Origin: an uncultured Gammaproteobacteria bacterium
GTDB lineage: Bacteria; Patescibacteriota; Microgenomatia; Woykebacterales; RBG-16-39-9b
Assembly: GCA_964367355.1 (NCBI GenBank)
Contig: CAYIWY010000007.1
Coordinates: 37,961 to 82,253, forward strand
DNA length: 44,293 nt
Direction: 5' to 3'
In this document: positions 10,510 to 33,930 of the stretch, piece after piece
Position numbering within the stretch: the stretch's first letter is position 1
How the letters are laid out: every line of letters starts with the position of its first letter
The notes under the pieces: model-generated
What the model saw: only the letters and a program-made list of their open reading frames with translations
What the model was told of the DNA's origin: nothing
The model's database searches: none
Program-made: the position numbers and the translations under genes

Positions 10510-10662
10510 CCAAGTCGCTCGTATACGTCGACAACTCCTTCGATAAATCGGAGTCAAACACGTCCGACTTAATAGCTCGCTTGGTTGAATTTCTTTTAGA
10601 CGCTTACTTGCAACGGTGGTTAGTGAAGCGAGAATCTGGTACACGTGCTTGTAACGGCGGTT

Positions 10663-11472
10663 ATGAAAGATAAAACCATGGATTCTGCCTTGAAAGTGAA
10701 ATATTCAACAATAATCGCTGCTTTACTGCTTATCTTTAGCACTAACTTTGCTTTTGCTCAGATTAGTGATCAAATTGCCTACAGCGTCCAGTTAAATAAT
10801 CCGGACGCCTCTACTGGTCAAATCGTTAGCCAAACAGATGGGAAATATGCTCTTTCCACCAAAGAATATGATAGTGGAGTATATGGTGTGATAGTCAATG
10901 ATCCAGCAGTCTCGTTAAATCAAATTACAACCACGACAAAATATGTTGTTATCAACGGCCAAGCGAATGTGAGCGTTTCCAAGAAAAACGGCGACATCAA
11001 AGAAGGCAATTTAATAACTACTTCAAAAGACCTCGGAATAGGTCAAAAAGCTACAAAATCTGGACACGTACTCGGCAAGGCGCTGAGAGATTTTCCAAAC
11101 GAGACTGACAAAGGTGAAATTGGCAGTATTCCCATTTTAATTAATGTTAACTACAACCAAGTTTCCGCCCAATCTGAAAGTTTGACCCAAACCGGGCTTG
11201 ACCAAGTAACCAAAAAAGTTTCGTTGGCACTAGTCTCAGGAAATCTGCCGGATTTGCTCAAATATGTCTTTGCTCTCTTATTGGGATTAATTAGTTTCTT
11301 TGTTGGTCTTTACCATTTTGTAAAAAGCAACCGGACCGCAGTTGAGTCAATTGCCAGAAATCCAATGGCGAAGCATGATATCCAAAAGCAGCTGGTTATT
11401 GGAACTGCTGGCATTTTGGCGGTTTGTGGTATTGGTTTAGCAATTGGGGTTTTGATTCTGTTTTTCCTTTAG
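10663..11472 (+). CDS. Secreted beta-domain protein (paralogous to the fibre C-terminal domains) fused to a C-terminal F-ATPase c-subunit-like helical hairpin that has no membrane carboxylate
   Basis: The track ORF is 10645..11472 (GTG start). An ATG at 10663 (or 10678) gives a cleaner signal peptide, ..IIAALLLIFSTNFAFA/Q. The last 75 aa (nt 11245-11469) form two hydrophobic helices joined by AVESIARNPMAKHDI, which matches the R-(Q/N)-P loop of c subunits. The middle region (about nt 10852-11155) aligns with the C-terminal domains of ORFs 27969..32960 and 41313..42752. Confidence 0.75.
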   Translation: MKDKTMDSALKVKYSTIIAALLLIFSTNFAFAQISDQIAYSVQLNNPDASTGQIVSQTDGKYALSTKEYDSGVYGVIVNDPAVSLNQITTTTKYVVINGQANVSVSKKNGDIKEGNLITTSKDLGIGQKATKSGHVLGKALRDFPNETDKGEIGSIPILINVNYNQVSAQSESLTQTGLDQVTKKVSLALVSGNLPDLLKYVFALLLGLISFFVGLYHFVKSNRTAVESIARNPMAKHDIQKQLVIGTAGILAVCGIGLAIGVLILFFL

Positions 11473-11497
11473 AGGAGAAGGTTTATAGGAGGAAATT

Positions 11498-12097
11498 ATG
11501 TTGACAAACATTTTAATTTTTATTGCAATACTTACCAATATCGTGACTCTAGCTTTAGTGTATTTTCTTTTCAAAAAAAGTACTGAAAGTTCAAATACGA
11601 TTAAAACCAACGCTGCGTTTTTGGAAAATACTGAGAAGCAAATCGAAAGCTTGCAAAACCGTTTTAAAGAATCGTTAGAAAACATTATATCCAAAGACTC
11701 TTTAATGATCGAAAATACATCAAGTAACATCATCAAATACTATCAAGATACGGTCAATTCCCTGACCGCAAATTACAACTTCAACAGTCAAAAGTTGACG
11801 GAAAATCTAAACCTGGAGCTGAAGAAACGAGTCGATCAGTTAGCCACAATCGTAGCCGAGCAATCCGAGGAATCAAAAAAAGTTTTCAGCAGTGAAATAC
11901 AAAAAGACCTTGTCTTAATCAAAAGAGATTTGGCCAATTATAGTCAAGGAAAGTTTGCCCAAGTCGATGCTAAAGCTTATCAGATTATCTCGGAAACTGC
12001 TAAGAATACTGTGGGTAAAGTTATTAATATGGTCGATCACCAAGAGCTGGTTATGCAAGCCTTGGACGAGGCTAAAAAGGATAAGTTTTTTGGATGA
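11498..12097 (+). CDS. atpF: F-type ATPase subunit b-like (single N-terminal TM helix plus a long coiled coil)
   Basis: AGGAGG lies 5-10 nt upstream of the ATG. N-terminal helix ILIFIAILTNIVTLALVYFLF is followed by charged helical sequence. The stop overlaps the start of the delta gene (ATGA at 12094). The call rests on position in the operon and overall architecture, because the sequence itself is divergent. Confidence 0.6.
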   Translation: MLTNILIFIAILTNIVTLALVYFLFKKSTESSNTIKTNAAFLENTEKQIESLQNRFKESLENIISKDSLMIENTSSNIIKYYQDTVNSLTANYNFNSQKLTENLNLELKKRVDQLATIVAEQSEESKKVFSSEIQKDLVLIKRDLANYSQGKFAQVDAKAYQIISETAKNTVGKVINMVDHQELVMQALDEAKKDKFFG

Positions 12098-12597
12098 AAA
12101 AAGAATTTACGTTATTTACCACGGCAGTTTATGACACTAAAGGTTTATATCGCTTGATTGACCAGATTACCTCAATCAACAAAAACCTTTATCACAATTT
12201 GCCGGGAACGATTGTTAGTAAAACTAAAGGTCTTCTCGCGCCAAGTTTAGAGGCGATCTTTGGTTATATAGAAGAGGCGGGTTTAGAACCAGAAGGTGAC
12301 GGTGCCCAAAAACAATTTTTAGAACAAATCGTCACTGAATTAAAAGCAGTTCCACTGGTCAAGATAACCTTGGCTTTTGAACCGGATGATAGTTTTACCT
12401 CAAAACTAAATGAAACGATCAGTGCTCAGGCAGGGCAAAAGGTAATACTCGACATCAGTGTTAATCATCATATTGTTGCGGGAGCAGTGGTTGAGTACCT
12501 AGGAAGGTATAAGGACTACAGTTTGGAACCAAAAGTTGACCAGTACTTGAAAGAAACGGTTAAGAAAGAGATGTTAACCGAAAAGGAAAATATCTAA
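12094..12597 (+). CDS. atpH: F-type ATPase subunit delta (OSCP)
   Basis: 167 aa, located between the b and alpha genes. The C-terminal segment VILDISVNHHIVAGAVVEYLGRYKDYSL fits the delta/OSCP pattern (..GGi.v..g....D.S). Confidence 0.7.
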   Translation: MKKEFTLFTTAVYDTKGLYRLIDQITSINKNLYHNLPGTIVSKTKGLLAPSLEAIFGYIEEAGLEPEGDGAQKQFLEQIVTELKAVPLVKITLAFEPDDSFTSKLNETISAQAGQKVILDISVNHHIVAGAVVEYLGRYKDYSLEPKVDQYLKETVKKEMLTEKENI

Positions 12598-12619
12598 TTT
12601 CCACTCCGGGGGTGGAAAT
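12597..12619. repeat. REP-like hairpin (atttccac-tccgggg-gtggaaat) between atpH and atpA
   Basis: 8-bp perfect stem starting at the last base of the atpH stop codon. Its arm and loop are related to the hairpins flanking the RAYT gene. Confidence 0.6.
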
Positions 12620-12643
12620 ACGAGGCTAAAGAAATTTAAACAA

Positions 12644-14113
12644 ATGAAAGATTTCAATACATATTTAAAAGAAATTGGTGAAGTTGGCTACGTCGAGTCG
12701 ATCATTACTTCAGTTTTTTATGTCAACGGCTTGCCTGGAGCGAAGCTGAACGAGCTGATATTAGCGGAAAATGGTCAGATAGGGATTGTTCAAGGTATTT
12801 TGCCAGAGCTGATCGAAGTCATGCTTTTTCAAGGTGAGGGTTTAACTCACAACATGAAAGTTGCCAGAACCAATGAAATTTTTGAAATGCCCGTATCAGA
12901 AGATTACCTCGGCAGGATTATTAGCCCTTTTGGGACGGTGCTTGACGATCAGGGACCGATAAAAGGGACTTTTGTTAACTATCCAATTGATCCTAAAGCT
13001 CCCGGAATAAACGCCCGTAGTCGGGTTAATACCCCTATGGAAACTGGTTTGATGGCGGTTGATATGCAAGTTCCGATTGGCAAGGGTCAAAGAGAGTTAA
13101 TCTTGGGTGATCAGAAGACCGGCAAAACTACCTTTGCAATTCAAGCAATTGCCAATCAAGTTCGGGCCGGCGCAGTTTGTGTCTACGTCTCGATCGGTAA
13201 GAAAAAGTCAGATTTAAAATTTGTCCAAAAATCACTTCAAGAAATGGATGTTTTGAAAAGTACGGTGATTATTTCAGCTTCAGCTTCGGACCAAGCACCG
13301 TTGATTTATTTATCACCTTTTGCCGGATTGTCCGTGGCTGAATTTTTCCGCGATCGGGGACAAGAAGTTTTAGTAGTTTTTGATGATCTGACCACTCACG
13401 CCAAATTTTACCGCGAGACTTCTTTGATTTCGCGCCGCACTCCAGGTCGGCAAAGTTACCCGGGGGACATCTTCCATCTGCACGCCCGCCTTGTTGAACG
13501 CGCCGGCAATATTAAACTTCAAAACGGAAAAGTTGTCGCAATTACACTTTTGCCAATCGCTGAAACTCTCGAAGGCGATTTGGCCGGCTACATTCAAACT
13601 AATTTAATGGCGATGACCGACGGTCACGTCTTTTTTGATATTGCTGAAGCCAAGAAAGGTCGGCATCCGGCCGTGAGTTTCACTCTTTCGGTTTCCCGAG
13701 TCGGCAATCAGACAAAAACTCCACTCGAGCGAGAATTAACCGGTCTGATTACCGAAAAACTAACCGCTTACCGCAAAGCTGAAGAGGTTAGTCGGTTTGG
13801 GGTTGAGCTGACAACACAGACTTTGCAGGCACTGGATAGCGGCGAAAAATTGATCGCGCTTTTTGATCAGGAGAGTCAAATTGTTATCCCCAAACCGCTG
13901 CAACTGGTTTACCTGGGGTTGTTTTTTGGTGGAGCCTGGAACCGAAAAACGAGTAAAGAAGTCAGAGTCGAGAAAATTCGTTTGTTTGGGGAATATTTAA
14001 CCGGCAGGTTTGGTAATTTACCAGTGGAAGCTAAACTCAGTAACTCACTGAAGGAATTAGTTACTCGAGTGACCAGTTTCTTTAAGATACCGGAAGCAGC
14101 AAAGGCTAAATAA
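12644..14113 (+). CDS. atpA: F-type ATPase alpha subunit
   Basis: Walker A GDQKTGKTTFAIQAI. Also EFFRDRGQEVLVVFDDLTTHAKFYRETSLISRRTPGRQSYPGDIFHLHARLVERA, which tracks the canonical alpha motif (..YFRD.G...L...DDLsK.A.[31 protein letters not shown]). Confidence 0.95.
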   Translation: MKDFNTYLKEIGEVGYVESIITSVFYVNGLPGAKLNELILAENGQIGIVQGILPELIEVMLFQGEGLTHNMKVARTNEIFEMPVSEDYLGRIISPFGTVLDDQGPIKGTFVNYPIDPKAPGINARSRVNTPMETGLMAVDMQVPIGKGQRELILGDQKTGKTTFAIQAIANQVRAGAVCVYVSIGKKKSDLKFVQKSLQEMDVLKSTVIISASASDQAPLIYLSPFAGLSVAEFFRDRGQEVLVVFDDLTTHAKFYRETSLISRRTPGRQSYPGDIFHLHARLVERAGNIKLQNGKVVAITLLPIAETLEGDLAGYIQTNLMAMTDGHVFFDIAEAKKGRHPAVSFTLSVSRVGNQTKTPLERELTGLITEKLTAYRKAEEVSRFGVELTTQTLQALDSGEKLIALFDQESQIVIPKPLQLVYLGLFFGGAWNRKTSKEVRVEKIRLFGEYLTGRFGNLPVEAKLSNSLKELVTRVTSFFKIPEAAKAK

Positions 14114-14985
14114 TGTATTCAAAATCTGATTTAAAAAAATATTCTGAAGCAGTGGCCACCATAAAATCCATCACCCGGGTTTATGAAGAGGCGGCTGCAC
14201 GAAGAATCAAATTAATTCAAGTTTCAGTGGGGAAAGTGACAGAGTTTATTGGCGACGCCGCCGATACCTATATCAACGTCAAGTTTGGGGTCGTGGCGGA
14301 TCAAAAAGCTAAGGGCGGAGTGCAAAAAAATATTTTAAGTAAAAGCTTCCGTCCAAAAACAAAAAAAGGAGTTTTGGTTTTGATTTCATCGCGTGACCAA
14401 TATTTCGGAAATCTTATCCCCAACCTTTTTCGTGAATGGAAAGTCGAGATGGTGAAAACCGGGTTTGATGGAATTATTTTAGGTAACACTGGTAAACGAT
14501 TGTTGGATAAAACCGATTTTGTGCCAAAAAACTTAAAGACCCTTGACTTAGACGACAACAATCCAGACTGGAATCTGGTCAGTCAGGTTGGTAAGGAAAT
14601 CGGAATTTATGAAAAAGTAATTATTTTTCACGGTCAATACAAGACGGTTTTGAATCAAGTTGCAACTCGCGCCGATGTTTCCGAGACAATTACAGTTGGG
14701 CAAGTCCAAAACGTCAAGAGATACCTTTTTGAAGCCAATTCCGATTCGATTCTGGCCTTTTTTGAAGAAGCAGTGATCAACGCTATGTTGCAGCTCAAAA
14801 TTTATGAATCACAAATCGCCCGCTATGCCGCCAGAATAAAAATTTTGGAAATCGGTCAGGTGGCTGAAAAAATGAGCCAAGTGATTGGGGACCTTTCTCG
14901 TGGTAAGCGCAAGGTACGGAAATCTTTGTCGAATAAGAAACAGCTCCAGCTTTACACCGGAGTAGATCTTTGGAGTGGAGGTTAG
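14113..14985 (+). CDS. atpG: F-type ATPase gamma subunit
   Basis: 290 aa, between the alpha and beta genes. Its start overlaps the alpha stop (TAATG). Both termini are helical, as in gamma. The sequence is divergent. Confidence 0.8.
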   Translation: MYSKSDLKKYSEAVATIKSITRVYEEAAARRIKLIQVSVGKVTEFIGDAADTYINVKFGVVADQKAKGGVQKNILSKSFRPKTKKGVLVLISSRDQYFGNLIPNLFREWKVEMVKTGFDGIILGNTGKRLLDKTDFVPKNLKTLDLDDNNPDWNLVSQVGKEIGIYEKVIIFHGQYKTVLNQVATRADVSETITVGQVQNVKRYLFEANSDSILAFFEEAVINAMLQLKIYESQIARYAARIKILEIGQVAEKMSQVIGDLSRGKRKVRKSLSNKKQLQLYTGVDLWSGG

Positions 14986-15112
14986 ATATGAACCATAGGT
15001 TATCAAAACTTAAAGTAATTGTTTTTTCATTCTCGGAAGAAAGTAAAAAACAGCTGCAGCTTTATACCGGGGTTGATTTATGGGGAGAATAGTAGCGAAT
15101 TAAGAATTATTA

Positions 15113-15137
15113 AATGTACACCTCCGAGGTGTACATT
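15113..15137. repeat. REP-like hairpin (aatgtacacc-tccga-ggtgtacatt) between atpG and atpD
   Basis: 10-bp perfect stem. The arm tgtacacc is identical to the arm of the hairpin immediately upstream of the RAYT gene. Confidence 0.7.
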
Positions 15138-15147
15138 GGAGGAATAG

Positions 15148-16521
<1,374 letters not shown>

Positions 16522-16527
16522 CAACAC

Positions 16528-16545
16528 GACAAGGACGGGCCTTGG
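16528..16545. repeat. Copy A of the caagg-N5-ccttg palindrome family (gacaaggacgggccttgg), between atpD and atpC
   Basis: The core caaggacgggccttg is identical to the copies at 40388 and 41186. Its 3' arm runs into the GGAGGA Shine-Dalgarno sequence of atpC. Confidence 0.6.
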
Positions 16546-16553
16546 AGGATAAA

Positions 16554-16865
16554 ATGGATATTGATGTAACAAAATTATCAACTGCTTCAAAATATAAGAT
16601 TGATCGACTGTTTGTCACGGTCTATTTAACTGATAAACTCGAAAAACCGGGCTTTAAAGGTTTCGCCAAATCCTTAACTTCGTTTGATAAAAAAGGAACA
16701 TTTGATGTTTTACCAATGCATGAAAATTTTGTCACTGAGTTTTCAAAGAATTTAGAAATAATTCCTGAAGAAGGGGAGAAGGTCTCTTATCAGAATTCAA
16801 CCGGAGTTATTGAAGTTGCCAATAATGTTGTCAGGGTTTTTTTGGAGGAAAAAAATAATCAATAG
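16554..16865 (+). CDS. atpC: F-type ATPase epsilon subunit, short form (beta-sandwich only)
   Basis: The track starts at TTG 16542. An ATG at 16554 sits 5 nt after GGAGGA, so I prefer it. GTFDVLPMHENFVTEF matches the epsilon motif G.fgiLp.H.p. At 104 aa it has no C-terminal helical hairpin. Confidence 0.75.
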   Translation: MDIDVTKLSTASKYKIDRLFVTVYLTDKLEKPGFKGFAKSLTSFDKKGTFDVLPMHENFVTEFSKNLEIIPEEGEKVSYQNSTGVIEVANNVVRVFLEEKNNQ

Positions 16866-17005
16866 ACAACTATCTGTTACAATACTATTTTCGCGGGCCG
16901 AAAACCGTGGATTCTTAATCCACGGACGAAGGCCAAAGAAAACGAAACTTTAGAGATGAAACCGAGGATTTTAACCCTCGGAGGTTCATTAATTGGAGGT
17001 TTATT

Positions 17006-17446
17006 TTGAAAACTGATGCGCAACTGCTAAAAACATTTAAGATCGAAAAGCTAGAAAAGAATATTATTTTTGTTGAGATGTTTGGTTCAGAAAGCGAAGA
17101 TGCTAACAATGGTCGTCAGGCGGAACTCGTTTCCGAAGCAATAATGAAAGTTGTCAACCAAGATCCAAAAACACTATACAATTTTTTGGTTGACATGACG
17201 CTTACTGGAACTGTTAGTCGTATTTCCCCACATGCCAAAGAGGTTTATATCAATTTATCCAAAATTTCAAACCAAGACAAAGCTGCAGTTATTGGAAACA
17301 ATTTAATGCTGGAGGTTTCGGTCAACCTTTTGATGCAAGCTACTGGTCGAGGCAGCAGTTTCAAATGGTTTAAAGATCGGGAGGAAGCATTGGAATGGTT
17401 GAAAACAGAAGTATCTACGACCGCGAAAACACCTAATTTTCCATAA
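17006..17446 (+). CDS. STAS/SpoIIAA-like fold protein (low-confidence family call)
   Basis: TTG start 6 nt after GGAGG. 146 aa, with an alternating beta/alpha pattern and a C-terminal FKWFKDREEALEWLK typical of STAS-like (DUF3478-type) proteins. Judged by eye only. Confidence 0.4.
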   Translation: MKTDAQLLKTFKIEKLEKNIIFVEMFGSESEDANNGRQAELVSEAIMKVVNQDPKTLYNFLVDMTLTGTVSRISPHAKEVYINLSKISNQDKAAVIGNNLMLEVSVNLLMQATGRGSSFKWFKDREEALEWLKTEVSTTAKTPNFP

Positions 17447-17512
17447 ATATATTGCAGATCGCCAAAACTAACCACCAAATTGCTAGCACTAACAGCTAAG
17501 ATTGCTAGTCGT

Positions 17513-17533
17513 TGTCCATCCCCGGAATGGACA
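17513..17533. repeat. REP-like hairpin (tgtccat-ccccgga-atggaca)
   Basis: 7-bp stem followed by tttt. The arm resembles the tgtccac arm downstream of the RAYT gene, and the loop is the reverse complement of the tccgggg loop at 12605-12611. Confidence 0.55.
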
Positions 17534-17588
17534 TTTTCTCCACAAGTAAGGTTTAATTTGTTGTCGAATCGTGGTATAGTTTTTTTAT

Positions 17589-17711
17589 GAAGCTCCCTCG
17601 ACCTTACGGTCGGGGTATCTTCTCCCCACGCTTCGTCGGGAGCAGAATCCCTCCGAAGCGAAAACATCTTCGCTTTCATCCGCGGGCTTACGCCCGGGGT
17701 ATTTCGCGAAG
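17589..17711. other. GC-rich block of three consecutive hairpins (candidate structured RNA or compound repeat); strand unresolved
   Basis: H1 17589-17622, H2 17629-17660, H3 17668-17711. H1 and H3 share the inner unit cg(a/g)(c/g)c-ttac-g(g/c)(t/c)cggggtat. On the minus strand both loops read GUAA, a GNRA tetraloop. Confidence 0.35.
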
Positions 17712-17757
17712 GGGGATAAAATGCCGAAAGATTATTAACTTGAGTTAGGGGAAAATT

Positions 17758-17825
17758 ATAGCGCTCTAAAGACCGATGTTTTCCAAAAGATAAGAAAAAT
17801 AGCGCTCTAAAGACCGATACTTTCC
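17758..17825 (+). promoter_or_regulatory. Two perfect 20-nt direct repeats (atagcgctctaaagaccgat, 41-nt period) just upstream of the receiver gene
   Basis: 17758-17777 and 17799-17818 are identical. The flanks also match (aaaat before, (g/a)(t/c)tttcc after). The second copy ends 21 nt before ATG 17839. Confidence 0.5.
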
Positions 17826-17838
17826 TTAAGAAAGAAAA

Positions 17839-18210
17839 ATGACAAAAATTTTAATAGTTGAGGACGATATCAGCCTATTAAATCTTTACAACGAAGTATT
17901 AAAAAAAGAAGGTTTTGAAATTGAGCTAGCTGACGACGGTCAGCAGGCTTTACTAAAAGCTGAGACGTTTATTCCAGATGTGGTCTTGCTTGATCTAATG
18001 CTGCCGTATATTGATGGTTTTGAAGTTCTGGAAAAACTAAAATCAAATCCAATCACAAAGGACGCTAGGGTAATAGTTCAGACCAATCTTGATTCAGAAA
18101 TCCAAAAAGAAAAAGCGCTTAAACTTGGAGCCTCTGAATTTTTAGTAAAATCAGACGATAATCCAGGAAGTTTACTCAAAGAAATCAAGAAACTCCTCGC
18201 AATATATTGA
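17839..18210 (+). CDS. Single-domain CheY-like response-regulator receiver
   Basis: KILIVEDD...VVLLDLMLPYIDGFEVLEKLK...VIVQTNL...K. 123 aa with no output domain. Confidence 0.9.
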   Translation: MTKILIVEDDISLLNLYNEVLKKEGFEIELADDGQQALLKAETFIPDVVLLDLMLPYIDGFEVLEKLKSNPITKDARVIVQTNLDSEIQKEKALKLGASEFLVKSDDNPGSLLKEIKKLLAIY

Positions 18211-18237
18211 CAAGGCCCGTCCTTGTCAATATTTTTT
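18204..18237 (+). terminator. Copy B of the palindrome family: atattgacaagg-cccgt-ccttgtcaatat plus a T-run. It resembles an intrinsic terminator and also reads as TTGACA-N17-TATTTT
   Basis: 12-bp perfect stem that includes the receiver gene stop codon (tga 18208-18210), a 5-nt loop, then ttttt. The same bases give a consensus -35 hexamer (18207-18212) and a -10-like tatttt (18230-18235), 43 nt upstream of ATG 18278. Confidence 0.5.
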
Positions 18238-18277
18238 GGGTTTGATTAGTTACGTTGTTTCCTCTAAAATAGAAGTA

Positions 18278-20536
18278 ATGCCCAAGTTTGTTAAAAAACT
18301 AGTTTCAGTAGCAATCGTTGTCGGAATTGCTTTTCAGCTTGTTCCAACCACCGAAGTAAAAGCAGTAATTTCTTCTTGTGGTGCTGAAGTAGATATTCAT
18401 GATGTCGTCCCGACAAGCGAGAATCTTTTTAACTTCACTGTTAACAATACTGATTCAAACACTGTGCAATGGGTAACCATCACCAGACCTTCCGGCAACT
18501 TTACTCTTATCGGAGCACAGGTGAATGGTTGGGGCAGTTCTGTGACAGCTGAAGTTGCTACTTTCACCCTTGGATCAATTGTTTCTGGCGGAAGCCACAG
18601 TTTTGGAATTCGAGCTTCGGCTGCCGATGTTCAAGCAAGTTCAGCCAATTGGGTCGTTAAAGTGTCAGACGACCCAAACGGTGCCAACCCTTTTAGTTGT
18701 GCTGGGGCTTTGGGTACTTCGATTAGTGGTTCAGCACCCGATACCACACCCCCGACGATTTCAAACATTTCAATGTCAGGTCTGACCTCCAACTCGATTA
18801 CCATCAGCTGGATGACTGACGAGCTGGCAACTTCAAAAATTTACTATGGATTGGATGATAGCTACGGTTCTGAAAAAAGTGACTTAGCTTTGAAAACAAG
18901 TCACACAGTTACTTTAACAGGATTAACTTCAGATATCGGTTACCATTTTCAGGTGGAAAGTGTTGACGGGTCTGGAAATAGCGCTCAATCTGGGGACAAT
19001 ACTTTTCTCACACCAGTTCCTAGTCAGTCTGGATTTACAAATAATGCTAGTTCCAGTAACTTTTCTTCCAGCGAAAGTACTTTGAAAAAATTGAAATTAA
19101 CTTCAACTGAAAAAATTCCCCCCACAATCACAATTGCAACCGATTTTTCCAAGCCTTTCGTGACTGCTCCGACAATAGTTGGGACAGCTGCCGATAATGT
19201 TGGTGTTTACAGTGTTGAGTATTCCACTGACTCTGGTAAAAATTGGCTGCCGGCCGATAAACAAACTGGTCTGGGCGGGAAAAGTGTTAGCTTTGAGTTT
19301 AAACCGCTAAATCTTGATGATGGAAATTATAAGATCGTCGCTCGGGCGACCGATACTTCCGGCAATCAAACCCTCTCGCAAACTTACACGTTGATTATTG
19401 ACCGTCTGCCGCCAACTGTTGGGGGTAGTGTTATTTCCATCGGTCCGCAAATCCTCAAACCCGATAAAGATGGAATCGTCACTACGGTTGTCGGTATTGA
19501 TCAAAAAGTTACGGTTAGTTCGGTGGGTGGGGCAACGCAAGTCAGTATCCGTGCGATTACTAGTACATCTAAGACAAATTCCGACGGCAATGTTTTTGCG
19601 CTTTCACGCTCGAACCAAACCGGTCTTTGGTCAGGAATCTTAAGTTTTTCCAAAAAAGGCCTGCACAATTTAATAGTCGAAGCAAGTGATGGAGCCGGCA
19701 ACAAGACAAAACGGGACTTTGGCAAAATCTACGCTTTGTCTGGTGGTCAAATAACCGAGAAAGATTCTAAAAAAGTAGTAACTCAAGCCAAAATTACCCT
19801 CTTTTATCTCGAGCCGGATTCAAATTCCTGGGTGGTTTGGGACGGCTCTTCCTACGGGCAGCAAAATCCGCAGACGAGTAAGGCTGGTCAGTTTAGACTT
19901 TTTACCCCAGCCGGAAAGTACTATCTGCAGGTTGCTGGGGATGGTTACAAAACCGTGATCAGTAAGATTTTTGAGGTAAATCAAACGATGCCGCTAGCTA
20001 AAAAAATTTCCCTCGAGAAAGCTACCAAGATTGGTTTTGGCGCTTTTTCCTTCACTATCCCGTCTTTGACAATTGAAAAAATCTCTCTACAGCAAGCCCC
20101 TGAAAAAGTTAACCCAACCAAGAGCATAGGATCTCTGGTAAACAAAACCCTACCGAGTTTTAACCTTGAGAAAACTAGTGGGGGAACAATCAATCAAGTG
20201 CAGTTGGCCGGTAAGCCAACTCTCCTTAGTTTTGTCTCAACCTGGTCGCCAGCTTCACAGGAGCAGTTTCAGGTTTTGGATAAATTGCAACAAAACCAGG
20301 ATTTAAATATCACCCCGATTGCAGTTATGGAATCTTCAGCGAAAATTGTCGCCTACAAAGTAATTTCGAAACTAAAATTGGATTATTTAGTTGACCCGGA
20401 TGGAGCGACCATAAATTCTTTCGGCTACCAAAGCTTGCCGACCCACTATTTTGTCAACCGTAAAGGTCTTATCAAAAGAATAGTGGTTGGAGTATTATCA
20501 GAGAAGGAAATAATCAACGGTCTAGGAGGTTTATAA
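18278..20536 (+). CDS. Secreted multidomain protein: FN3-like, Ig-like, CarboxypepD_reg-like and a C-terminal thioredoxin-fold (TlpA/redoxin-like) domain lacking the CxxC cysteines
   Basis: The track starts at TTG 18236. An ATG at 18278 gives the signal peptide MPKFVKKLVSVAIVVGIAFQLVPTTEVKA. FN3-like segment: PPTISNISMSGLTSNSITISWMTDELATSKIYYG...YHFQVESVDGSGN. C-terminal redoxin-like segment: LAGKPTLLSFVSTWSPASQEQ...LPTHYFVNRKG. Confidence 0.7.
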   Translation: MPKFVKKLVSVAIVVGIAFQLVPTTEVKAVISSCGAEVDIHDVVPTSENLFNFTVNNTDSNTVQWVTITRPSGNFTLIGAQVNGWGSSVTAEVATFTLGSIVSGGSHSFGIRASAADVQASSANWVVKVSDDPNGANPFSCAGALGTSISGSAPDTTPPTISNISMSGLTSNSITISWMTDELATSKIYYGLDDSYGSEKSDLALKTSHTVTLTGLTSDIGYHFQVESVDGSGNSAQSGDNTFLTPVPSQSGFTNNASSSNFSSSESTLKKLKLTSTEKIPPTITIATDFSKPFVTAPTIVGTAADNVGVYSVEYSTDSGKNWLPADKQTGLGGKSVSFEFKPLNLDDGNYKIVARATDTSGNQTLSQTYTLIIDRLPPTVGGSVISIGPQILKPDKDGIVTTVVGIDQKVTVSSVGGATQVSIRAITSTSKTNSDGNVFALSRSNQTGLWSGILSFSKKGLHNLIVEASDGAGNKTKRDFGKIYALSGGQITEKDSKKVVTQAKITLFYLEPDSNSWVVWDGSSYGQQNPQTSKAGQFRLFTPAGKYYLQVAGDGYKTVISKIFEVNQTMPLAKKISLEKATKIGFGAFSFTIPSLTIEKISLQQAPEKVNPTKSIGSLVNKTLPSFNLEKTSGGTINQVQLAGKPTLLSFVSTWSPASQEQFQVLDKLQQNQDLNITPIAVMESSAKIVAYKVISKLKLDYLVDPDGATINSFGYQSLPTHYFVNRKGLIKRIVVGVLSEKEIINGLGGL

Positions 20537-20539
20537 CAT

Positions 20540-22138
20540 ATGCTGTCCCTTGTGTTTATCAGTCAAAACTTACACTTCGCAATCAACCTCTTTGCTGCAT
20601 TAGTGTGTTTTGCTGTTTTTTGGCTCTATTTTGACGCTTGGTTATCCCGAACGAAGAAGAAACAGACCCTGCTTTGGTTGGGATTTCTGCTGCTGTGTGT
20701 TTCTTTCTTGGTTCAGGCTACGGTGATCGAACAAGCTGTTTTGGGGAATTCTTTTCTAGGCAATTTTTCCGAAGGGTTATCTAGTGCAATTAGGATCTTG
20801 GGGTATTTACTGATCATTTTTGGTCAGATCAGAGACCCACTGCAGGCTGTTCCTACTACCGAAGGGCTCAAACTAGAAAAAGCCCCAGCTATATCTGGCC
20901 TTGGGTTTATTAGTAATAGTTTAGTGTTGCTACCACCAGTCGGTAGTTTGGTCTGTGGGTTGCTCTATTGGAGGAGGGCAACTACTGGTCTGGAAAAACA
21001 TTTACGCCGCGTGGCCCTAGCTTTTTTTGGTTTAAGTCTTTTTGAGTTGCTGTCTTTATCAAAGTTCTTGCAAGGCTCCGACAATCCTTTTTTGTACAGC
21101 CTGTCATCGAGTTTTGGTTTGATTTGGTATCTGGAACAGATAGTTTTAGTAGTCAGTATCGCTCTTCTTGGTTTATGGGTCTGGCAATACCTGGTGACGC
21201 GTCTGCAGAGCCAACTGTTTATGATTTTTACAAGTGCGGTTCTGGGAATTTTCCTGCTGACAACGGTCAGTTTTACCTTCCTTTTGTTGAATAATATCCA
21301 GAATGAGTCTTTGAGCAATCTCGCCACAGCCACGAATGTTTTGAATTACTCACTCGGTTCCAAAAAAGAGGAAATTTTGTCGACAACCGAGAGTCTCGCA
21401 TCCAATCCCGATATCGTCAGGGCACTTGCTGAAAAGGATCACAAAAAGTTGAATAGCTTGGTTCAAAAACTTCTGGAAACAAAAGCAAAATCATCGATTC
21501 TAGTTACGGATGAGTCCGGAATGGTACTCTCAAGAGCCGAAGAACCCGATCGTTGGGGTGACTCAATCTCTGATGACCCACTGACGCGGCGGGCGCTAGT
21601 CGGGCTTGCAGGAACAAGTACGGTCGCGCAGGAAGGAGTACTCGCGCCTTTAGTTTATATCAAATCAGCAGTTCCGGTGCGGGATGCCAACAAAAACATT
21701 ATTGGCAGTTTGACCTCTGGGGTTTTGATCGACAATGCCTTTGTGGATGGAGTAAAAACTACAACGGGGTTGGACAGTGCGATCTATGCCGGCAATGTCC
21801 GATCTGCCACTACCTTTCTGGCAGCCGATGGCAAGTCGCGCTGGATCGGGGTCAAGGAAGAAAATCCGGAAATCAAAGACCAAGTTCTCAAAAAAGGGGA
21901 CACCTTCAAAGGTAGCGTCGAGGTGCTCAACAGACCCTTTATTGGCGCCTACAGCCCGCTGCGCGATGTCAATAACGACATTGTCGGTATGATCTTTATC
22001 GGCAAGCCGCAAAGCTCAATCTTGTTGGTGGCAGGCAAGAGTATCGAACTGACCTTTTTAGTGGCAGTACTTCTGATCTCACTATCGATAATTCCGTCTT
22101 TCTTGGTGTCGCGTTACCTGAGTAAGCAGCTTTCTTAA
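20540..22138 (+). CDS. Polytopic membrane sensor with an extracytoplasmic double-Cache-like domain and no output domain
   Basis: About 7 N-terminal TM helices, then a ~270-aa soluble region between two TM helices (size and pattern fit dCache). The protein ends just after the last TM (..SRYLSKQLS), where a HAMP domain would begin. The next gene starts 4 nt later. Confidence 0.55.
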   Translation: MLSLVFISQNLHFAINLFAALVCFAVFWLYFDAWLSRTKKKQTLLWLGFLLLCVSFLVQATVIEQAVLGNSFLGNFSEGLSSAIRILGYLLIIFGQIRDPLQAVPTTEGLKLEKAPAISGLGFISNSLVLLPPVGSLVCGLLYWRRATTGLEKHLRRVALAFFGLSLFELLSLSKFLQGSDNPFLYSLSSSFGLIWYLEQIVLVVSIALLGLWVWQYLVTRLQSQLFMIFTSAVLGIFLLTTVSFTFLLLNNIQNESLSNLATATNVLNYSLGSKKEEILSTTESLASNPDIVRALAEKDHKKLNSLVQKLLETKAKSSILVTDESGMVLSRAEEPDRWGDSISDDPLTRRALVGLAGTSTVAQEGVLAPLVYIKSAVPVRDANKNIIGSLTSGVLIDNAFVDGVKTTTGLDSAIYAGNVRSATTFLAADGKSRWIGVKEENPEIKDQVLKKGDTFKGSVEVLNRPFIGAYSPLRDVNNDIVGMIFIGKPQSSILLVAGKSIELTFLVAVLLISLSIIPSFLVSRYLSKQLS

Positions 22139-22141
22139 ACT

Positions 22142-23284
22142 ATGAACAAAGTCCAAACAAAATTAATTATCTTTGCATTTTTTCTCGCTATTGGTTTGGG
22201 TATTGGTTCATTTTATTTTAGTTACTCAAATCTTCAAAGTGTCGAACAATTATTCAACTCAAGGCAAGAAGAAAAGGAGACTCTTTTTGATAGTCTAACC
22301 AAGCTTAAATCTTCTTCCTTGTTGGCCTATGCTTACGATTACACTTACTGGGATGATATGGTGAATCTGGTTGAGAAGGGTGATGACAAATTTGCCAAAG
22401 AAAATATTGATCCCAGCCTTTCCACGTATAAAGCCAACGCGGCTTGGGTGTATCGACTAGATTTCTCGGGAGTATACGCAGTAAACGACCTTGAAGATGA
22501 GGACTTAAAAACCTTTCCTTTACCAACAGCGTCTCTTAAAAAAATCTTTGTCGGTAGCCTTTTTCCGCATTTTTACGTTCTCACCCCCAAGGGTGTTATG
22601 GAGATAGCCGGTGCTCCAATCCAGCCCAGTACTGATGTTGAGCGCAAAAGCTCACCTCGTGGTTATTTTCTAGTCGGAAGGCTTTGGGACAAAGCCTATC
22701 TTGATGAATTGTCTACTTTTATGGCAGGCGAGGTCGAGCGGGATGCTACAGATGATACCAAACACGAGTTTGTGAGCGATCTGAAGCAGGGTATTGTTAT
22801 TTTTCGACGCGAATTGACTGGCTTTGATGGGAAAAGTGTCGATCGTATCCACGTTGAGGTCAAAACACCCATAACCACAGTCTTGAATAAAACCTCAACC
22901 AACCAATTTGCTTTCCAAATCATTGGACCGCTTTCGGCAGCTATTTTGATGATGGCTGTTCTTTTTCTTTGGGTAATTCGACCGCTTGGTTTGGTTTCCA
23001 AAAGTTTGGAAAAAGGAGATTCTAAGTTTATCGAACGTTTGCGTAATAGTAAATCTGAGTTTGGTCAGATTGCTAACATGATCGCCAAGTTCCTCGAACA
23101 GAAGACTTCTTTGGAGAAAGAAGTGTCAGAGCATTTTCGGGCGCAGAAGGAATTGGAAAAACAAAAAGACGAACTAGAGCGGATCAATAAAACCATGATT
23201 GACCGGGAACTGCGAATGGTTGGGCTGAAAAAAGAAATTGAAAATTATAAAGACCAGCTTTCCCAAAAGGAGAAAAAAACTTAA
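22142..23284 (+). CDS. Membrane sensor with a CHASE4-like periplasmic domain, a second TM helix and a C-terminal coiled coil; no output domain
   Basis: AYAYDYTYWDDMVNLVEKGDDKFAKENID matches the CHASE4 signature (dYa.WDDty.fv). TM helices lie at about aa 8-28 and about aa 258-280. The C-terminus reads ..INKTMIDRELRMVGLKKEIENYK. Confidence 0.6.
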   Translation: MNKVQTKLIIFAFFLAIGLGIGSFYFSYSNLQSVEQLFNSRQEEKETLFDSLTKLKSSSLLAYAYDYTYWDDMVNLVEKGDDKFAKENIDPSLSTYKANAAWVYRLDFSGVYAVNDLEDEDLKTFPLPTASLKKIFVGSLFPHFYVLTPKGVMEIAGAPIQPSTDVERKSSPRGYFLVGRLWDKAYLDELSTFMAGEVERDATDDTKHEFVSDLKQGIVIFRRELTGFDGKSVDRIHVEVKTPITTVLNKTSTNQFAFQIIGPLSAAILMMAVLFLWVIRPLGLVSKSLEKGDSKFIERLRNSKSEFGQIANMIAKFLEQKTSLEKEVSEHFRAQKELEKQKDELERINKTMIDRELRMVGLKKEIENYKDQLSQKEKKT

Positions 23285-23286
23285 AC

Positions 23287-24189
23287 ATGGTTGAAAGTCT
23301 GTTAACCCCAATCTCAAAGGATGCAAAAGAAATAAAAACGAAAGCCAGGCTGAGCGCGCTTCTAGGTGCCTTGGAAAAAATTGCCATAGTTTCCGCGACC
23401 GATATAGGTGGAAATATAACCTACGTCAATGAAAAATTTATTGATATTTCCAAATATTCCCGAGAGGAACTCATCGGCAAAAACCACCGCATTCTGAAGT
23501 CCGGTTACCACGACGAAGCATTTTTTAAAAATCTCTGGGAGACGATTTCGACTGGGGAAATTTGGCGCGGAGAAATCAAAAATAAGGCCAAAGACGGTAG
23601 CTTCTATTGGGTTGATTCCTCAATTAGCCCGACATTTGACGACAGCGGCAAAATCATGGGCTATGTTGCCGCGCGTTTTCCGATAACCGAGCTGAAGCAG
23701 GAGCAAGAGGCCTTGAATGAAAGCGAGAAAAAATTCCGTGCTCTAATCGAGAATTCAAAAGATCTCATTTCAATTCTTAGTTTTGACGGGACGATAAAAT
23801 ACGAATCGCCTTCGATTAAGGAAATGTTGGGCTATAGTCAAGATGAGCTTGTGGGGGAAAATGCCTTTAATTTTATTCACCCGGATGATTTGGCAGCCGT
23901 GAAAGAAAAATTTGCAGAAGTAATTAAAAATCCGGGAAAAGTGCAGAAGGTCGACTTCCGTTTCCTTCACAAAAGTGGTACTTGGCTGGTTTTGGAGTCA
24001 ATTGGAAATTATGATACTAAAGATGCTGTCCCAGAAGTGGTGGTTAATTCTCGGGATATCACTGCTAGAAAAGAAGCTGAAAACAATCTTGAAAAGATGA
24101 ACCAATTTATGATTGACCGCGAACTGAAAATGATTGAGTTGAAGCAAAAGATCGCCGAACTTGAAGGTAAGCCGAAGGAAGAGAAATAA
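23287..24189 (+). CDS. Cytoplasmic tandem PAS-domain protein, no output domain
   Basis: Two PAS-like segments: IVSATDIGGNITYVNEKFIDISKYSREELIGKNHRIL.. and LISILSFDGTIKYESPSIKEMLGYSQDELVGENAFNFIHPDD. The C-terminus reads ..MNQFMIDRELKMIELKQKIAEL. Confidence 0.75.
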   Translation: MVESLLTPISKDAKEIKTKARLSALLGALEKIAIVSATDIGGNITYVNEKFIDISKYSREELIGKNHRILKSGYHDEAFFKNLWETISTGEIWRGEIKNKAKDGSFYWVDSSISPTFDDSGKIMGYVAARFPITELKQEQEALNESEKKFRALIENSKDLISILSFDGTIKYESPSIKEMLGYSQDELVGENAFNFIHPDDLAAVKEKFAEVIKNPGKVQKVDFRFLHKSGTWLVLESIGNYDTKDAVPEVVVNSRDITARKEAENNLEKMNQFMIDRELKMIELKQKIAELEGKPKEEK

Positions 24190-26517
24190 ATGGACACCCC
24201 AGAAAAAGTTTCGGGTAATATTGATTTTTCTCAGAAGACCAAACTGATTTATCAGTTTTCCAGTGTTGGTTTTGTCTCTTTGATTATTTTCGGAATCGTT
24301 AACTTATCGCAAGGGCAGACTTCTTCCGGAATAGCTGAGCTTGTTTTTGGCCTGGCTATTTTAGGTAATGTTGTCTATCTGCGCTGGCAGAAAAGTGTAG
24401 AATTTGCCACCAACGGTGTACTTTTCTTGATGTTGGGCGTTTTAGCTTTTCTCTTGGTTGATGGGGGGATTGATAAATCCGGGCTTTTTTGGTTTTATAC
24501 CTACCCAGCTTTAGCCTTTTTTCTCAAAGGCCGCAAGAAGGGATTATATTGGATTTTAGTACTATTATTGATGATCGCCACAGTTACAGTTATGAGTATG
24601 TTAGCTTTGGTGGAAATACCTTTTTCCGAGGTGATTGTCCGTCAGCTCTTGGTTAGTTTAGTGGCGGTTTCCTTTTTAATCTATTTCTACCAACAGGTTA
24701 ATGAAAAAAAAGAAAAATTGCTCGACATTGATCGAGCCGACCATGAAGAACAAGCAAAGATTCTTGTGGAGAAGGACCAAGTTATCGAGGAAACGCTAAA
24801 AAGCATTGAAGGGCAAAATCAAAATTTGTCCAATACTAAAATGGCCATGCTCAATGTTTTGGAGGATGCCAAAGAACTGCAGAATAAACTAGAATCCCAA
24901 GCTGACGATTTGCGCAAATTCCAACTCGCCACCCAAAGTTCCTATGAGCACATTATCATCACGGATAGTAAAGGTGTGATACTTTATGCCAATCCCGGGG
25001 CGGCTCGAAACACTGGTTACTCAATTGAAGAAATGATTGGCAAGACCACCGCTCTTTGGGGTGGGCAAATGGATAAAGAGTATTACAAGGAGATGTGGCA
25101 GATATTGGTAGTCAAAAAACAGCCCTTCGTTAATGAGATTACCAACAAACGCAAGAACGGGGATAAGTATATCGCACAGCTAAAAGTATCACCGATATTG
25201 GACGATCAAGGTGAGATTAAGTTTTTTGTTGGGTTGGAAAATGATGTTACCACAGAACGAAAATTGGCAGCCAATTTGCGAGAAGAGAAAGAGGGTGTTG
25301 AGATCAAGGTTAAAGAGCGGACTAAAGAACTGCAAGCAGAGCAAGGGAAACTACAAGCCTCAATCAACAGCTTAAACGTTGGTTTCGTCATGACCGACAC
25401 GCAGTTTAAGGTTGTTAATATCAACTCTACTGCCAAAAGAATCCTTTGTATCGACGATTTCAAAGCAATATTGCATGCTCCGGGTAATATTGGTTCCAAC
25501 TGTAGTCTCGAAGATATTGAGGAGAACCTTAAAGGTGTGGTTGATATTCGAGAAAATATCAAAAAATGTTTGAACGAGAAAAATATTATCAATATTGATG
25601 ACATCAGTTTTAACAATCGCTTTCTACATTTCTTCCTCTCCCCAATTGCACTCTACAGAGAAAAACTGGACATCATCGGGGTGGTAATTTTGGTAGAGGA
25701 TGTTACGGAAGCCAAGATTTTGGCCAGAAGTAAAGACGAGTTTTTCTCGATTGCTTCCCATGAACTGCGCACACCACTGACCGCGATCCGCGGTAATACT
25801 GCTTTGATGAAGGACTACTACTTTGACAAAATTGAGGATAAAGATCTGAAAGTTATGATCGGTGATATTCATGAATCCTCGGTACGTCTGATCCAGATCG
25901 TCAATGATTTCTTGGATACTTCCCGTTTGGAACAGCGCCGAATCGAGTTTCACAATGAAGATTTCGACCTGCCGACTGTAATTGAGGAAGTCAGCAAGGA
26001 ACTGGAGCCCAATCTGGCAACTTCAGAGCTATATTTAAAACTGAAACCTTCTAATGTGCCGGTTCCACTGGTGATTGCCGATCGTGACAGAGTTAAACAA
26101 ATATTGATCAACTTAATTGGCAACGCCATTAAATTTACCAAAGAAGGTGGGATCACAATTGCTCTTACACCAACTGGTTCGGTTGTAAAAATCTCAATTA
26201 CTGATACTGGCCAAGGTTTGACTGAGGTGAGTAAGAACTTACTTTTCCGTAAATTCCAGCAAGCAGAAGACAACATTCTGACTCGAGACGCGACCAGAGG
26301 AACAGGGCTGGGGCTTTATATCTCCAAACTTCTGGTTGAAGGTATGGGCGGAAAAATTTATCTGGAAAACTCGCAGGAAAAGAAAGGCTCAACCTTTAGT
26401 TTTGAGCTGCAGGCAGTAGCTAAGACAGAAGTGATCGCCCCGAAGGAAGAGGTTAAAAAGAAAAGAGTGTTCAAATCAAAAGCTAAAAAGGGAAAGAAGA
26501 AGGTTGCTAAAAAATAG
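24190..26517 (+). CDS. Sensor histidine kinase (multi-TM N-terminus, coiled coil, PAS, HisKA, HATPase_c, polybasic tail)
   Basis: H-box FFSIASHELRTPLTAIRGN, N-box LINLIGNAIKFT, G-boxes DTGQGL and GTGLGLYISKLLVEGMGGKI. The ATG directly abuts the upstream stop (TAAATG). The C-terminal tail is KKKRVFKSKAKKGKKKVAKK. Confidence 0.9.
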   Translation: MDTPEKVSGNIDFSQKTKLIYQFSSVGFVSLIIFGIVNLSQGQTSSGIAELVFGLAILGNVVYLRWQKSVEFATNGVLFLMLGVLAFLLVDGGIDKSGLFWFYTYPALAFFLKGRKKGLYWILVLLLMIATVTVMSMLALVEIPFSEVIVRQLLVSLVAVSFLIYFYQQVNEKKEKLLDIDRADHEEQAKILVEKDQVIEETLKSIEGQNQNLSNTKMAMLNVLEDAKELQNKLESQADDLRKFQLATQSSYEHIIITDSKGVILYANPGAARNTGYSIEEMIGKTTALWGGQMDKEYYKEMWQILVVKKQPFVNEITNKRKNGDKYIAQLKVSPILDDQGEIKFFVGLENDVTTERKLAANLREEKEGVEIKVKERTKELQAEQGKLQASINSLNVGFVMTDTQFKVVNINSTAKRILCIDDFKAILHAPGNIGSNCSLEDIEENLKGVVDIRENIKKCLNEKNIINIDDISFNNRFLHFFLSPIALYREKLDIIGVVILVEDVTEAKILARSKDEFFSIASHELRTPLTAIRGNTALMKDYYFDKIEDKDLKVMIGDIHESSVRLIQIVNDFLDTSRLEQRRIEFHNEDFDLPTVIEEVSKELEPNLATSELYLKLKPSNVPVPLVIADRDRVKQILINLIGNAIKFTKEGGITIALTPTGSVVKISITDTGQGLTEVSKNLLFRKFQQAEDNILTRDATRGTGLGLYISKLLVEGMGGKIYLENSQEKKGSTFSFELQAVAKTEVIAPKEEVKKKRVFKSKAKKGKKKVAKK

Positions 26518-26542
26518 CTGCTAGCAGTATAATTTTTCTAAT

Positions 26543-26938: not shown

Positions 26939-26999
26939 TTGTGCAACCCGTCGTTCTCCTATTGTTTCAAGTCTCAAAATAGGATAATATTTTGCAATC

Positions 27000-27938: not shown

Positions 27939-27968
27939 AAGCTATTAAACATAAGTTAAAGAATTGAG

Positions 27969-33926: not shown

Positions 33927-33930
33927 GAAA

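Follow-up and report, generated by a model that had tools for sequence, protein, structure and literature searches.

Dispersed palindromes in a groundwater Patescibacteria contig as probable repeats of a tyrosine transposase

Is a short palindrome that recurs six times within 44 kb, and that reads both as a hairpin and as part of a promoter, a terminator, an operator or a mobile element? The question is raised by a 44,293-base stretch of contig CAYIWY010000007.1 (positions 37,961 to 82,253), referred to below as the window. Proteins encoded in the window have exact matches in groundwater metagenomes of the Hainich aquifer (0.1-μm fraction), and its gene content is typical of the candidate phyla radiation (CPR)/Patescibacteria, with an atp operon, giant surface proteins and no match in the whole 44 kb either to Rfam at gathering thresholds or in a tRNA scan. 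We conclude that the six palindromes are very probably copies of a repeat of the repetitive extragenic palindrome (REP) type that belongs to a REP-associated tyrosine transposase (RAYT), called the cognate RAYT below, whose gene is found in relatives.

A palindrome family in the window

Exact matching found CAAGGNNNNNCCTTG six times in the window, at 16530, 18211, 32321, 40388, 41186 and 41848, or about one copy per 7 kb. The pattern CAAGG-N5-CCTTG was thus observed six times against 0.10 expected from dinucleotide-preserving shuffles, none of 100 shuffles reached six, and no further copy with up to two mismatches was present in the window. The loop reads ACGGG in three copies, its reverse complement CCCGT in one and CCCGG in two. 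In its full form the palindrome is 23 bp long, TTGACAAGG-N5-CCTTGTCAA; copies 18207 and 32317 match this form without a mismatch and copy 41844 with one, and the symmetry of the family nearly reaches the centre (TTGACAAGGnC-S-GnCCTTGTCAA). Copies 40388 and 41186 are contained in a 36-nt repeat (40371-40406 and 41169-41204) whose two occurrences are 97% identical. All six copies are singletons; inverted doublets of the kind known as REP doublets forming hairpins (REPINs) or bacterial interspersed mosaic elements (BIMEs) were seen only in a distant relative, L139.

Four of the six copies are extragenic and follow the 3′ end of a gene. By the coordinates of the open reading frames (ORFs), the distance from gene end to palindrome is about 0 nt for the receiver gene, 6 nt for brnA, 9 nt for atpD and 109 to 113 nt for the gene of a 479-aa protein. 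Two of these copies touch the signals of their neighbours: the TGA stop codon of the receiver gene (18208-18210) falls within the TTGACA of copy 18207, and the 3′ arm of copy 16530 overlaps the Shine-Dalgarno sequence GGAGG of atpC (16544-16548). The remaining copies, 32321 and 41848, lie inside long ORFs of surface-protein genes and are read in different frames (Table 1).

The copies differ widely in how well they fold, with stems of 5 to 12 bp and loops of 3 to 5 nt. The hairpin at 18204-18232, whose 12-bp stem and 5-nt loop come with a T-run, has a predicted energy of -17.4 kcal/mol (z = -4.4), and its copy (18204-18237) is the only one of the six with a T-run after the hairpin on the strand of the upstream gene. 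Copies 40388 and 41186 have 5-bp stems and fold at the level of shuffled sequence (z of about 0). Pairs of -35 and -10 hexamers are present at three of the six copies: TTGACA-17-TATTTT at 18207-18235 on the plus strand, and TTGACA-16-TATATT at 40406-40379 and at 41204-41177 on the minus strand. An earlier note, made from the letters of this DNA, had described the six copies, their three core variants, the positions past atpD, the receiver gene, brnA and the 479-aa gene, the long stem with its T-run and the promoter-like pairs, and our analysis bore out each of these observations. It corrected the note in three respects: the intragenic position of copies 32321 and 41848, the weak folding of copies 40388 and 41186, and the 36-nt repeat to which the latter two belong.

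Table 1. Copies of the palindrome and RAYT-related sites in the window
Feature	Positions	Strand	Remarks
Core-only copy CAAGGACGGGCCTTG, without TTGA/TCAA tags	16530-16544		atpD-atpC spacer; weak hairpin (5-bp stem, z = -1.8)
Full 23-bp palindrome TTGACAAGGCCCGTCCTTGTCAA	18207-18229	+	With flanks (18204-18237), 12-bp stem and T-run; left-end type
Site of the cognate RAYT in relatives (gene and two flanking palindromes)	26939-27968		By synteny with L029, L129 and L132; window has a beta-lactamase-2-like ORF (27000-27938) instead
Full palindrome inside ORF of a 1663-aa surface protein (27969-32960, minus strand)	32317-32339		Read as LTRPGLVN; linker after SAM-like domains
The window's own RAYT (33300-33926) with flanking palindromes (33247-33273, 33928-33956)	33247-33956	+	Other palindrome family, AAATGTACACCC..GGGTGTACATTT
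36-nt right-end-type unit	40371-40406	-	Minus strand TTGACAAGGCCCGTCCTTG-GAGTATATT-GCAGGCTA; 6 nt past brnA stop codon; z = -0.25
Second 36-nt right-end-type unit	41169-41204	-	About 110 nt past the 479-aa gene; about 220 nt upstream of brnT and directed at it
Palindrome CTGA...TCAA inside ORF of the 479-aa protein (41313-42752, minus strand)	41844-41866		Read as IDKAGPCQ; variable loop of C-terminal domain

Transposase genes bounded by the palindrome in relatives

Searched for CAAGGNCSGNCCTTGTCAA, 185,579 species genomes yielded 95 loci. Patescibacteria of several classes accounted for about a quarter of the matches listed, mostly with the loop TCCGA or TCGGA, and several of their loci held three to five copies within 1 kb. 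At L012 the copies lie around and inside a 228-aa ORF that carries the PNHFH and YIHxNP motifs of a Y1 HUH transposase. By tblastn, a RAYT homologue adjoins the palindrome at L009, L012, L029, L042 and L048, and a metagenome scan contributed a further complete unit, L121. We did not count L032, where the RAYT homologue is flanked by a different palindrome. An RNA shared between CPR bacteria and DPANN archaea was considered and rejected: of five archaeal matches, three were FtsZ coding sequence (VTRPGLVN) and one a reverse-transcriptase gene, and these are chance coding matches. A genome in the Genome Taxonomy Database from the same well (H51-bin110_1) has a different loop variant and a RAYT that is only 43% identical, which marks it as a different organism.

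To obtain an unbiased set, we used the RAYT of L029 as a protein query. The search gave at least 7,285 homologues with E ≤ 1e-20, named as transposases of Saccharimonadales, Woesebacteria and Shapirobacteria, and the contigs of nine homologues supplied eleven loci (L129 to L139), nine of them with RAYTs 73 to 83% identical to the query and two with RAYTs 46 to 52% identical. ACAAGG-N5-CCTTGT precedes the start codon in all eleven where the contig covers this position; a copy follows or overlaps the stop codon in 10 of 11, and a copy lies inside the ORF near residue 55, likewise in 10 of 11. Even the two distant homologues keep the stem ACAAGG/CCTTGT, with the loop TCTAA or TCTCT, and one of them, L139, has the inverted doublets mentioned above. 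The stem is conserved across the clade and the loop varies.

All 15 RAYT loci of this clade in relatives, eleven of which were found by protein similarity alone, therefore have an adjoining palindrome. It stands upstream in 14 of the 15 (the remaining contig is cut) and, after or overlapping the stop codon, downstream in 12; the downstream hairpins of L029 and L048 are degenerate or of other sequence, and L138, with a copy that only overlaps the stop codon, is a doubtful case. The spacing is 14 to 22 nt before the start codon and, where a downstream copy is present, 1 to 34 nt after the stop codon or overlapping it, and the outer tags, TTGA and TCAA, point outward. Eleven close relatives have the palindrome at either gene end and within the ORF as well. 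The cognate RAYT was not found in the window, so this flanking arrangement is missing there.

Most of the loci L129 to L139 share one layout. The left end reads (A/C)TTGA-CAAGGCCCGTCCTTG-TCAAGTAAATTnTTCCC-ATG, the internal copy near residue 55 reads ACTC-CAAGGACGGGCCTTG-GAGAGG, and the right end, directly past the stop codon, reads stop-CAGCCTcAAAtTTACTC-CAAGG..CCTTG-TCAA. The exceptions are L134, which is cut before the left end, L138, whose right end only overlaps the stop codon, and the internal hairpins of L138 and L139, which differ in sequence. Read outward, either end of the gene is an inverted repeat, about 30 nt long and consisting of TTGACAAGG-loop-CCTTG, about four bases and TAAATT, and the repeat may be better termed a terminal inverted repeat (TIR) of about 30 nt made up of TTGA, the hairpin CAAGG-N5-CCTTG and a TAAATT-like hexamer. 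The two 36-nt units of the window match the right ends of the relatives' RAYT genes (TAG/TGA-CAGCCTcAAAtTTACTC-CAAGG..CCTTG-TCAA), and tblastn found no RAYT remnants beside them. A fixed rule relating loop orientation (CCCGT or ACGGG) to the TTGA tag was tried and failed, with the right ends of L121, L131 and L135 carrying either loop.

The copy of its own palindrome inside the RAYT ORF recurs at the conserved position near residue 55, and in some loci also near residue 155 (L009, L012, L029, L042, L048, L121 and L129 to L139). L138 and L139 have a different hairpin at the internal position, and the window's other RAYT (33300-33926) has none. A hairpin at this place suggests a role at the nucleic acid level, such as autoregulation.

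The protein encoded between the palindromes was characterized by profile and by structural model. Pfam Y1_Tnp scored above threshold in all six RAYT proteins tested, and the HUH motif and the catalytic tyrosine (YIHxNP) were invariant in alignments of 8 and of 32 sequences. The only relevant NCBIfam match was REP_Tyr_transpos, at 43 to 55 bits against a curated cut-off of 80, which makes this RAYT clade a distant member of the family. A single-sequence search of solved structures gave no match, and TnpA(REP) was reached only by the profile search and by the structural model: a RAYT profile found 4ER8, the TnpA(REP) of Escherichia coli, as its best match (E = 2e-4), and an AlphaFold model (pLDDT 84) matched 4ER8_A best (E = 3e-7, TM-score 0.74), followed by the transposases of IS608, ISDra2 and IS200. 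Proteins of the clade are 210 to 240 residues long, a length that includes the extra C-terminal region of RAYTs. On this evidence the cognate enzyme is classed as a RAYT, a predicted Y1 HUH nuclease of a clade widespread in CPR/Patescibacteria. The window's own RAYT is a paralogue, 36 to 41% identical to the cognate clade.

We then located the position that the missing gene would take. L131 is 87 to 97% identical to window 9209-18229, carries the cognate RAYT at that point and resumes at window 27967. Over window 17800-18229 the two are 97% identical and have the same palindrome, which in L131 is directly followed by GTAAATTGTTCCC-ATG of the RAYT gene; synteny stops precisely at the palindrome's last base, 18229. 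By this exact match, the window copy 18207-18229 stands where L131 has the left end of its RAYT. L132, which comes from Hainich well H41, matches window 26463-26931 at 97% identity; beyond that it has a left end and a RAYT in the place of the window's beta-lactamase-2-like ORF. Together, L131 and L132 indicate that the window is without the cognate RAYT at both positions where relatives have the gene. A candidate decayed left end at about 26936-26958 was set aside, the alignment match being too weak to count as evidence.

The neighbourhood of the gene is kept in L029, L129, L131, L132, L135 and L137. L129 is collinear with the window from atpD to leuS and has two RAYTs, the cognate one between the gene of a 131-aa response regulator and the giant gene, and one of the window's type farther on; L029 has its RAYT between the same two genes. 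No second copy of the cognate RAYT type was found in any locus examined, each contig having one copy of the gene. A further contig, CAYHXX010000003.1, is collinear with window 7122-31853 at 70 to 85% identity and has the same loop variants. This 88-kb contig, which supplied L021, L027, L029, L035 and L069, has CPR gene content and was deposited in a metagenome-assembled genome labelled Gammaproteobacteria; it is probably mis-binned. Judged from these alignments, the presence of the cognate RAYT varies within the same aquifer population, and the repeat marks rearrangement junctions.

The 9.7-kb block at 18230-27966, which is missing from L131, where the RAYT gene stands instead, begins at a copy of the repeat. 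It encodes a 766-aa protein, Cache and CHASE4 sensors, PAS proteins, a histidine kinase, a response regulator and the beta-lactamase-like ORF. L035 has a paralogous block (ORFs of 740, 533 and 126 aa) between atpD and atpC.

Related genomes also differ in which orthologous sites hold a dispersed copy. Between atpD and atpC, the window and L131 (7373) have one, and L035, L137 and L129 have none; between atpB and atpE, L069 alone has one, the window having none. The 3′ end of the receiver gene has a copy in the window, L027, L131 and L135 and a right-end-type copy in L129. Inside ORFs, the window and L129 (15636-15658) share a copy in the N-terminal linker of the giant gene, and a copy in the C-terminal-domain loop is found in the 479-aa protein of the window, in L137 (3225) and in L029 (2213), the last in a different frame. 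The 1663-aa paralogue in the window has no copy in this loop and is six residues shorter there. At L027 the orthologue of copy 18207 is still a palindrome, but its long stem and T-run are gone. Between atpG and atpD, L035 has a member of this family, and the window and L131 have the other palindrome family. Such a comparison across related genomes had been proposed in the earlier note.

Over about 131 kb of the lineage we counted 35 copies in total, those at RAYT genes included. Most of the intergenic ones lie 1 to 13 nt past a gene end, and 7 of the 35 supply a TGA stop codon. A complete 802-kb Woesebacteria genome has three motif sites, two of them beside a RAYT. Published REP families likewise lie just past 3′ ends, have tags that provide stop codons and include in-frame intragenic copies (PMC3733652). 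The palindrome was also seen inside recJ of two unrelated CPR genomes (L028, 2652-2674; L045, 2617-2639), just before LIITVDNG and in different frames, in keeping with published observations that intragenic REPs are over-represented in DNA-repair genes.

The promoter-like hexamers follow from the structure of the element. The left-end palindrome starts with TTGACA in 13 of the 15 RAYT loci, and in those 13 a -10-like hexamer, not always canonical, lies 16 to 19 nt downstream and 4 to 8 nt before the start codon. The right end of the unit has the same hexamers, directed inward. This -35 look-alike is intrinsic to the element, because the tag TTGA and the CA of the stem together make TTGACA. The left-end TTGACA appears to serve as the -35 element of a promoter for the RAYT gene, and the short distance to the start codon suggests that the RAYT mRNA is nearly leaderless. 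With a -35 hexamer built into the repeat, dispersed copies carry half or the whole of a predicted promoter, and a -10-like hexamer is found 16 to 18 nt downstream in 18 of 41 tagged half-sites. The brnTA genes also have a promoter-like site, TTGACA-17-TAAAAT at 40955-40983 on the minus strand, which ends 4 nt before the GTG start codon, a leaderless arrangement as in the RAYT genes. This site holds its own unrelated palindrome, TTGACAAATCATATGTTTTGTCA, which is probably the operator of BrnA.

Explanations of the repeat

We consider it very probable that the six palindromes are copies of a REP-type repeat of a RAYT. By analogy with TnpA(REP) of E. coli and with the IS200/IS605 family, whose mechanism is the basis for the hairpin recognition and cleavage envisaged here (PMC8266576), the enzyme would bind the folded, single-stranded hairpin together with its tetranucleotide tag. 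It would then cut and rejoin DNA, dispersing copies mostly to positions just past gene 3′ ends, and copies would occasionally land in frame in tolerant protein loops. Secondary roles may have followed, copy 16530 supplying the ribosome-binding site of atpC and copy 18207 a stop codon.

Several observations weigh against this explanation. The cognate RAYT was not found in the 44 kb of this genome that was analysed, and the family may be an orphan here. Copy number and extragenic bias for the whole genome are extrapolations from about 131 kb of sequence. The tag is conserved as TTGA, as against the GTAG or CGTC of the described REP super-families; the window copies are singletons and not inverted doublets; and two of six are intragenic, a share above that usual for REPs.

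If the palindromes were primarily RNA-level elements, either intrinsic terminators or hairpins that stabilize mRNA 3′ ends, their position past gene ends at all four intergenic sites would be explained, as would the 12-bp stem, the T-run and the strong fold, well beyond that of shuffled sequence, of the hairpin at 18204-18232; E. coli REPs are moreover known to affect 3′ ends (PMC8266576). The earlier note had listed such a terminator or mRNA-hairpin role among its options, and this stands for 18204-18237, which may act as an intrinsic terminator, a role acquired secondarily. It does not extend to the other five copies, which have no T-run; 40388 and 41186 have 5-bp stems at the level of shuffles, and two copies lie in ORFs. 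The orthologous copy of L027 has kept the palindrome without the long stem and T-run, the symmetry extends to within one base of the centre, which an RNA hairpin does not need, and the association with RAYT genes would be left unexplained. We regard a primary role in RNA as unlikely. Of comparably low probability, in our view, is that the TTGA palindrome is a portable control module used across CPR bacteria, with copies that carry a -35 hexamer or a promoter and sometimes a terminator and that the RAYT binds, as it would the conserved hairpin in its own ORF, to regulate itself and its neighbours. Were this so, the sensor-kinase operon after 18207 and brnTA after 41204 would be candidates for such control, and the in-frame copies in giant surface-protein genes would be a further source of variation.

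Another rival is an autonomous insertion sequence (IS) of the IS200/IS605 family, with the copies as its ends, solo ends or miniature derivatives, in place of a domesticated RAYT/REP system. The Y1 HUH transposase with palindromic ends fits this, as do the extension of both ends past the hairpin as an inverted repeat of about 30 nt and the presence or absence of the gene between contigs 97% identical. However, the gene keeps one syntenic neighbourhood (atp operon, response regulator and giant surface-protein gene) across relatives 66 to 97% identical, no locus has a second copy of this RAYT type, and the short hairpins are far more numerous than the gene. The protein, at 210 to 240 residues with the extra C-terminal region of RAYTs, is also closer in its structural model to TnpA(REP) than to the IS608, ISDra2 or IS200 transposases. 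We judge an autonomous IS to be quite improbable. The earlier note's third option, a mobile, promoter-bearing miniature element, came closest of those it offered; what it lacked is the RAYT gene unit, of which the repeat forms the terminal palindrome. It had also set the family apart from the hairpins that flank the window's RAYT, which holds for the sequences and misses that the family has a paralogous RAYT of its own, absent from the window.

A double-stranded operator of a dimeric transcription factor, overlapping promoters and defining a regulon, would account for the near-perfect dyad over 23 bp, for the overlap with a consensus -35 and for the -10-like hexamers at the tagged half-sites. 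It is contradicted by copies inside ORFs in different frames, by positions after gene ends and not before gene starts, by occupancy that varies at orthologous sites and by neighbouring genes without a common functional theme, and the palindrome adjoins the RAYT gene at all 15 clade loci. A MerR-type or other operator was rejected on the intragenic and post-gene positions. The operator proposed in the earlier note is thus unsupported, the co-occurrence being with a transposase gene and not with a regulon, and we hold this explanation to be very unlikely. Autoregulation of the RAYT by binding to its own left end may occur and belongs to the REP/RAYT explanation, not to this one. Natural competence offers one more candidate, a DNA uptake sequence like those of Neisseria or Haemophilus, which can be dismissed almost completely. 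The motif does occur within and between genes, and its stem is common to many CPR lineages. Classical uptake sequences are present at about one per kb and in Neisseria and Haemophilus often form inverted pairs at terminators, as well as lying inside genes; here there is about one copy per 7 kb of the window, and the complete Woesebacteria genome has only three sites, the loop differs between lineages, and the link to a transposase gene is strict.

Other repeats in the window and comparison with known systems

The window holds several further repeats and structures. The palindrome family of its own RAYT (AAATGTACACC..GGTGTACATTT) has a third copy at 15111-15137 in the atpG-atpD spacer, where L131 has two copies of that family and L035 has the TTGACAAGG family instead. 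At 17590-17725 lies an intergenic, G+C-rich stretch of about 130 nt with three or four strong hairpins (-67.6 kcal/mol, z = -5.2), which reaches 15 to 25 times the depth of its flanks in groundwater runs and is matched by many short, unrelated contigs. It is not a tRNA, and relaxing the Rfam threshold to E ≤ 1 still brought no match; either a further dispersed element with structure or an RNA so far undescribed may lie here. A 41-nt unit at 17758-17839 is tandemly duplicated (83% identical) directly upstream of the start codon of the receiver gene. Within leuS (37089-39881) there is a 65-nt direct repeat (37884-37948 and 38949-39013) with copies 95% identical and 1,065 nt apart, each of which holds a short internal duplication. 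Finally, a very large gene on the minus strand of window 1-10450, apparently running off the left end, contains repeated units of 43 to 93 nt (such as TCCCAACCAGTCCCGATGTTGATGGCGGTTT) at 180, 834, 1419, 2619 and 4071.

We found no description of a REP/RAYT system in CPR/Patescibacteria in the literature. Such systems have been characterized mainly in Proteobacteria, and here one RAYT clade recurs across Microgenomates, Saccharibacteria and related groups. For the annotation of small CPR genomes, this explains a recurrent palindrome that could be mistaken for a terminator, an operator or a promoter. Work on RAYT expression and control could be informed by the promoter borne on the element's end, the hairpin in the ORF and the copies that donate stop codons, a ribosome-binding site or peptides.

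With members of the IS200/IS605 family such as IS608 and ISDra2, and with their miniatures, the family would share Y1 HUH chemistry, subterminal hairpins recognized as single-stranded DNA and tetra- or pentanucleotide motifs, all by analogy. Those elements are multicopy and autonomous, with transposases of about 130 to 155 residues and non-identical ends, whereas here the gene looks confined to a single locus, the protein is larger and TnpA(REP)-like, and the ends are inverted copies of each other. Most described families of Rickettsia palindromic elements (RPEs) are much longer than the 23-bp copies, and no transposase has been linked to RPE families. RPEs resemble our family, as do intragenic REPs, for which in-frame copies are documented (PMC3733652), in that in-frame repeats are tolerated in protein loops, as at 32317, at 41844 and in recJ.

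The family also fits the description of TIRtrons (TIRYT; Di Nocera et al. 2013, PMC3733652), which have inverted-repeat ends of about 30 nt with a self-complementary tract, moderate repeat abundance and no GTAG or CGTC tag. The TIR families described so far share other motifs (GGGGWSAS) and come from other phyla, and here the hairpin of 19 to 23 nt alone is the commonest dispersed form. The closest likeness is to the REPtrons of E. coli and Pseudomonas (PMC3116915, PMC3479197, PMC8266576, PMC5581495). In both, a short palindrome bears a conserved tetranucleotide at its base; inverted copies of the palindrome flank a Y1 HUH gene, and others are dispersed, here within about 131 kb of the lineage, mostly just past gene 3′ ends. 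In both, some copies give a stop codon, some lie in frame within genes, presence varies between related genomes and the gene keeps one syntenic locus, here in the relatives examined; 4ER8 is the best profile and structural match of our RAYTs. Our family differs in its TTGA tag in place of GTAG, in its CPR/Patescibacteria host, in an NCBIfam score of 55 against 80 bits, in the palindrome or other hairpin at a conserved position inside the RAYT ORF, in a left-end palindrome that doubles as the predicted -35 element of the RAYT promoter, and in window copies that are singletons at modest local density. The palindrome is, in these terms, an ordinary kind of repeat in an unusual host.

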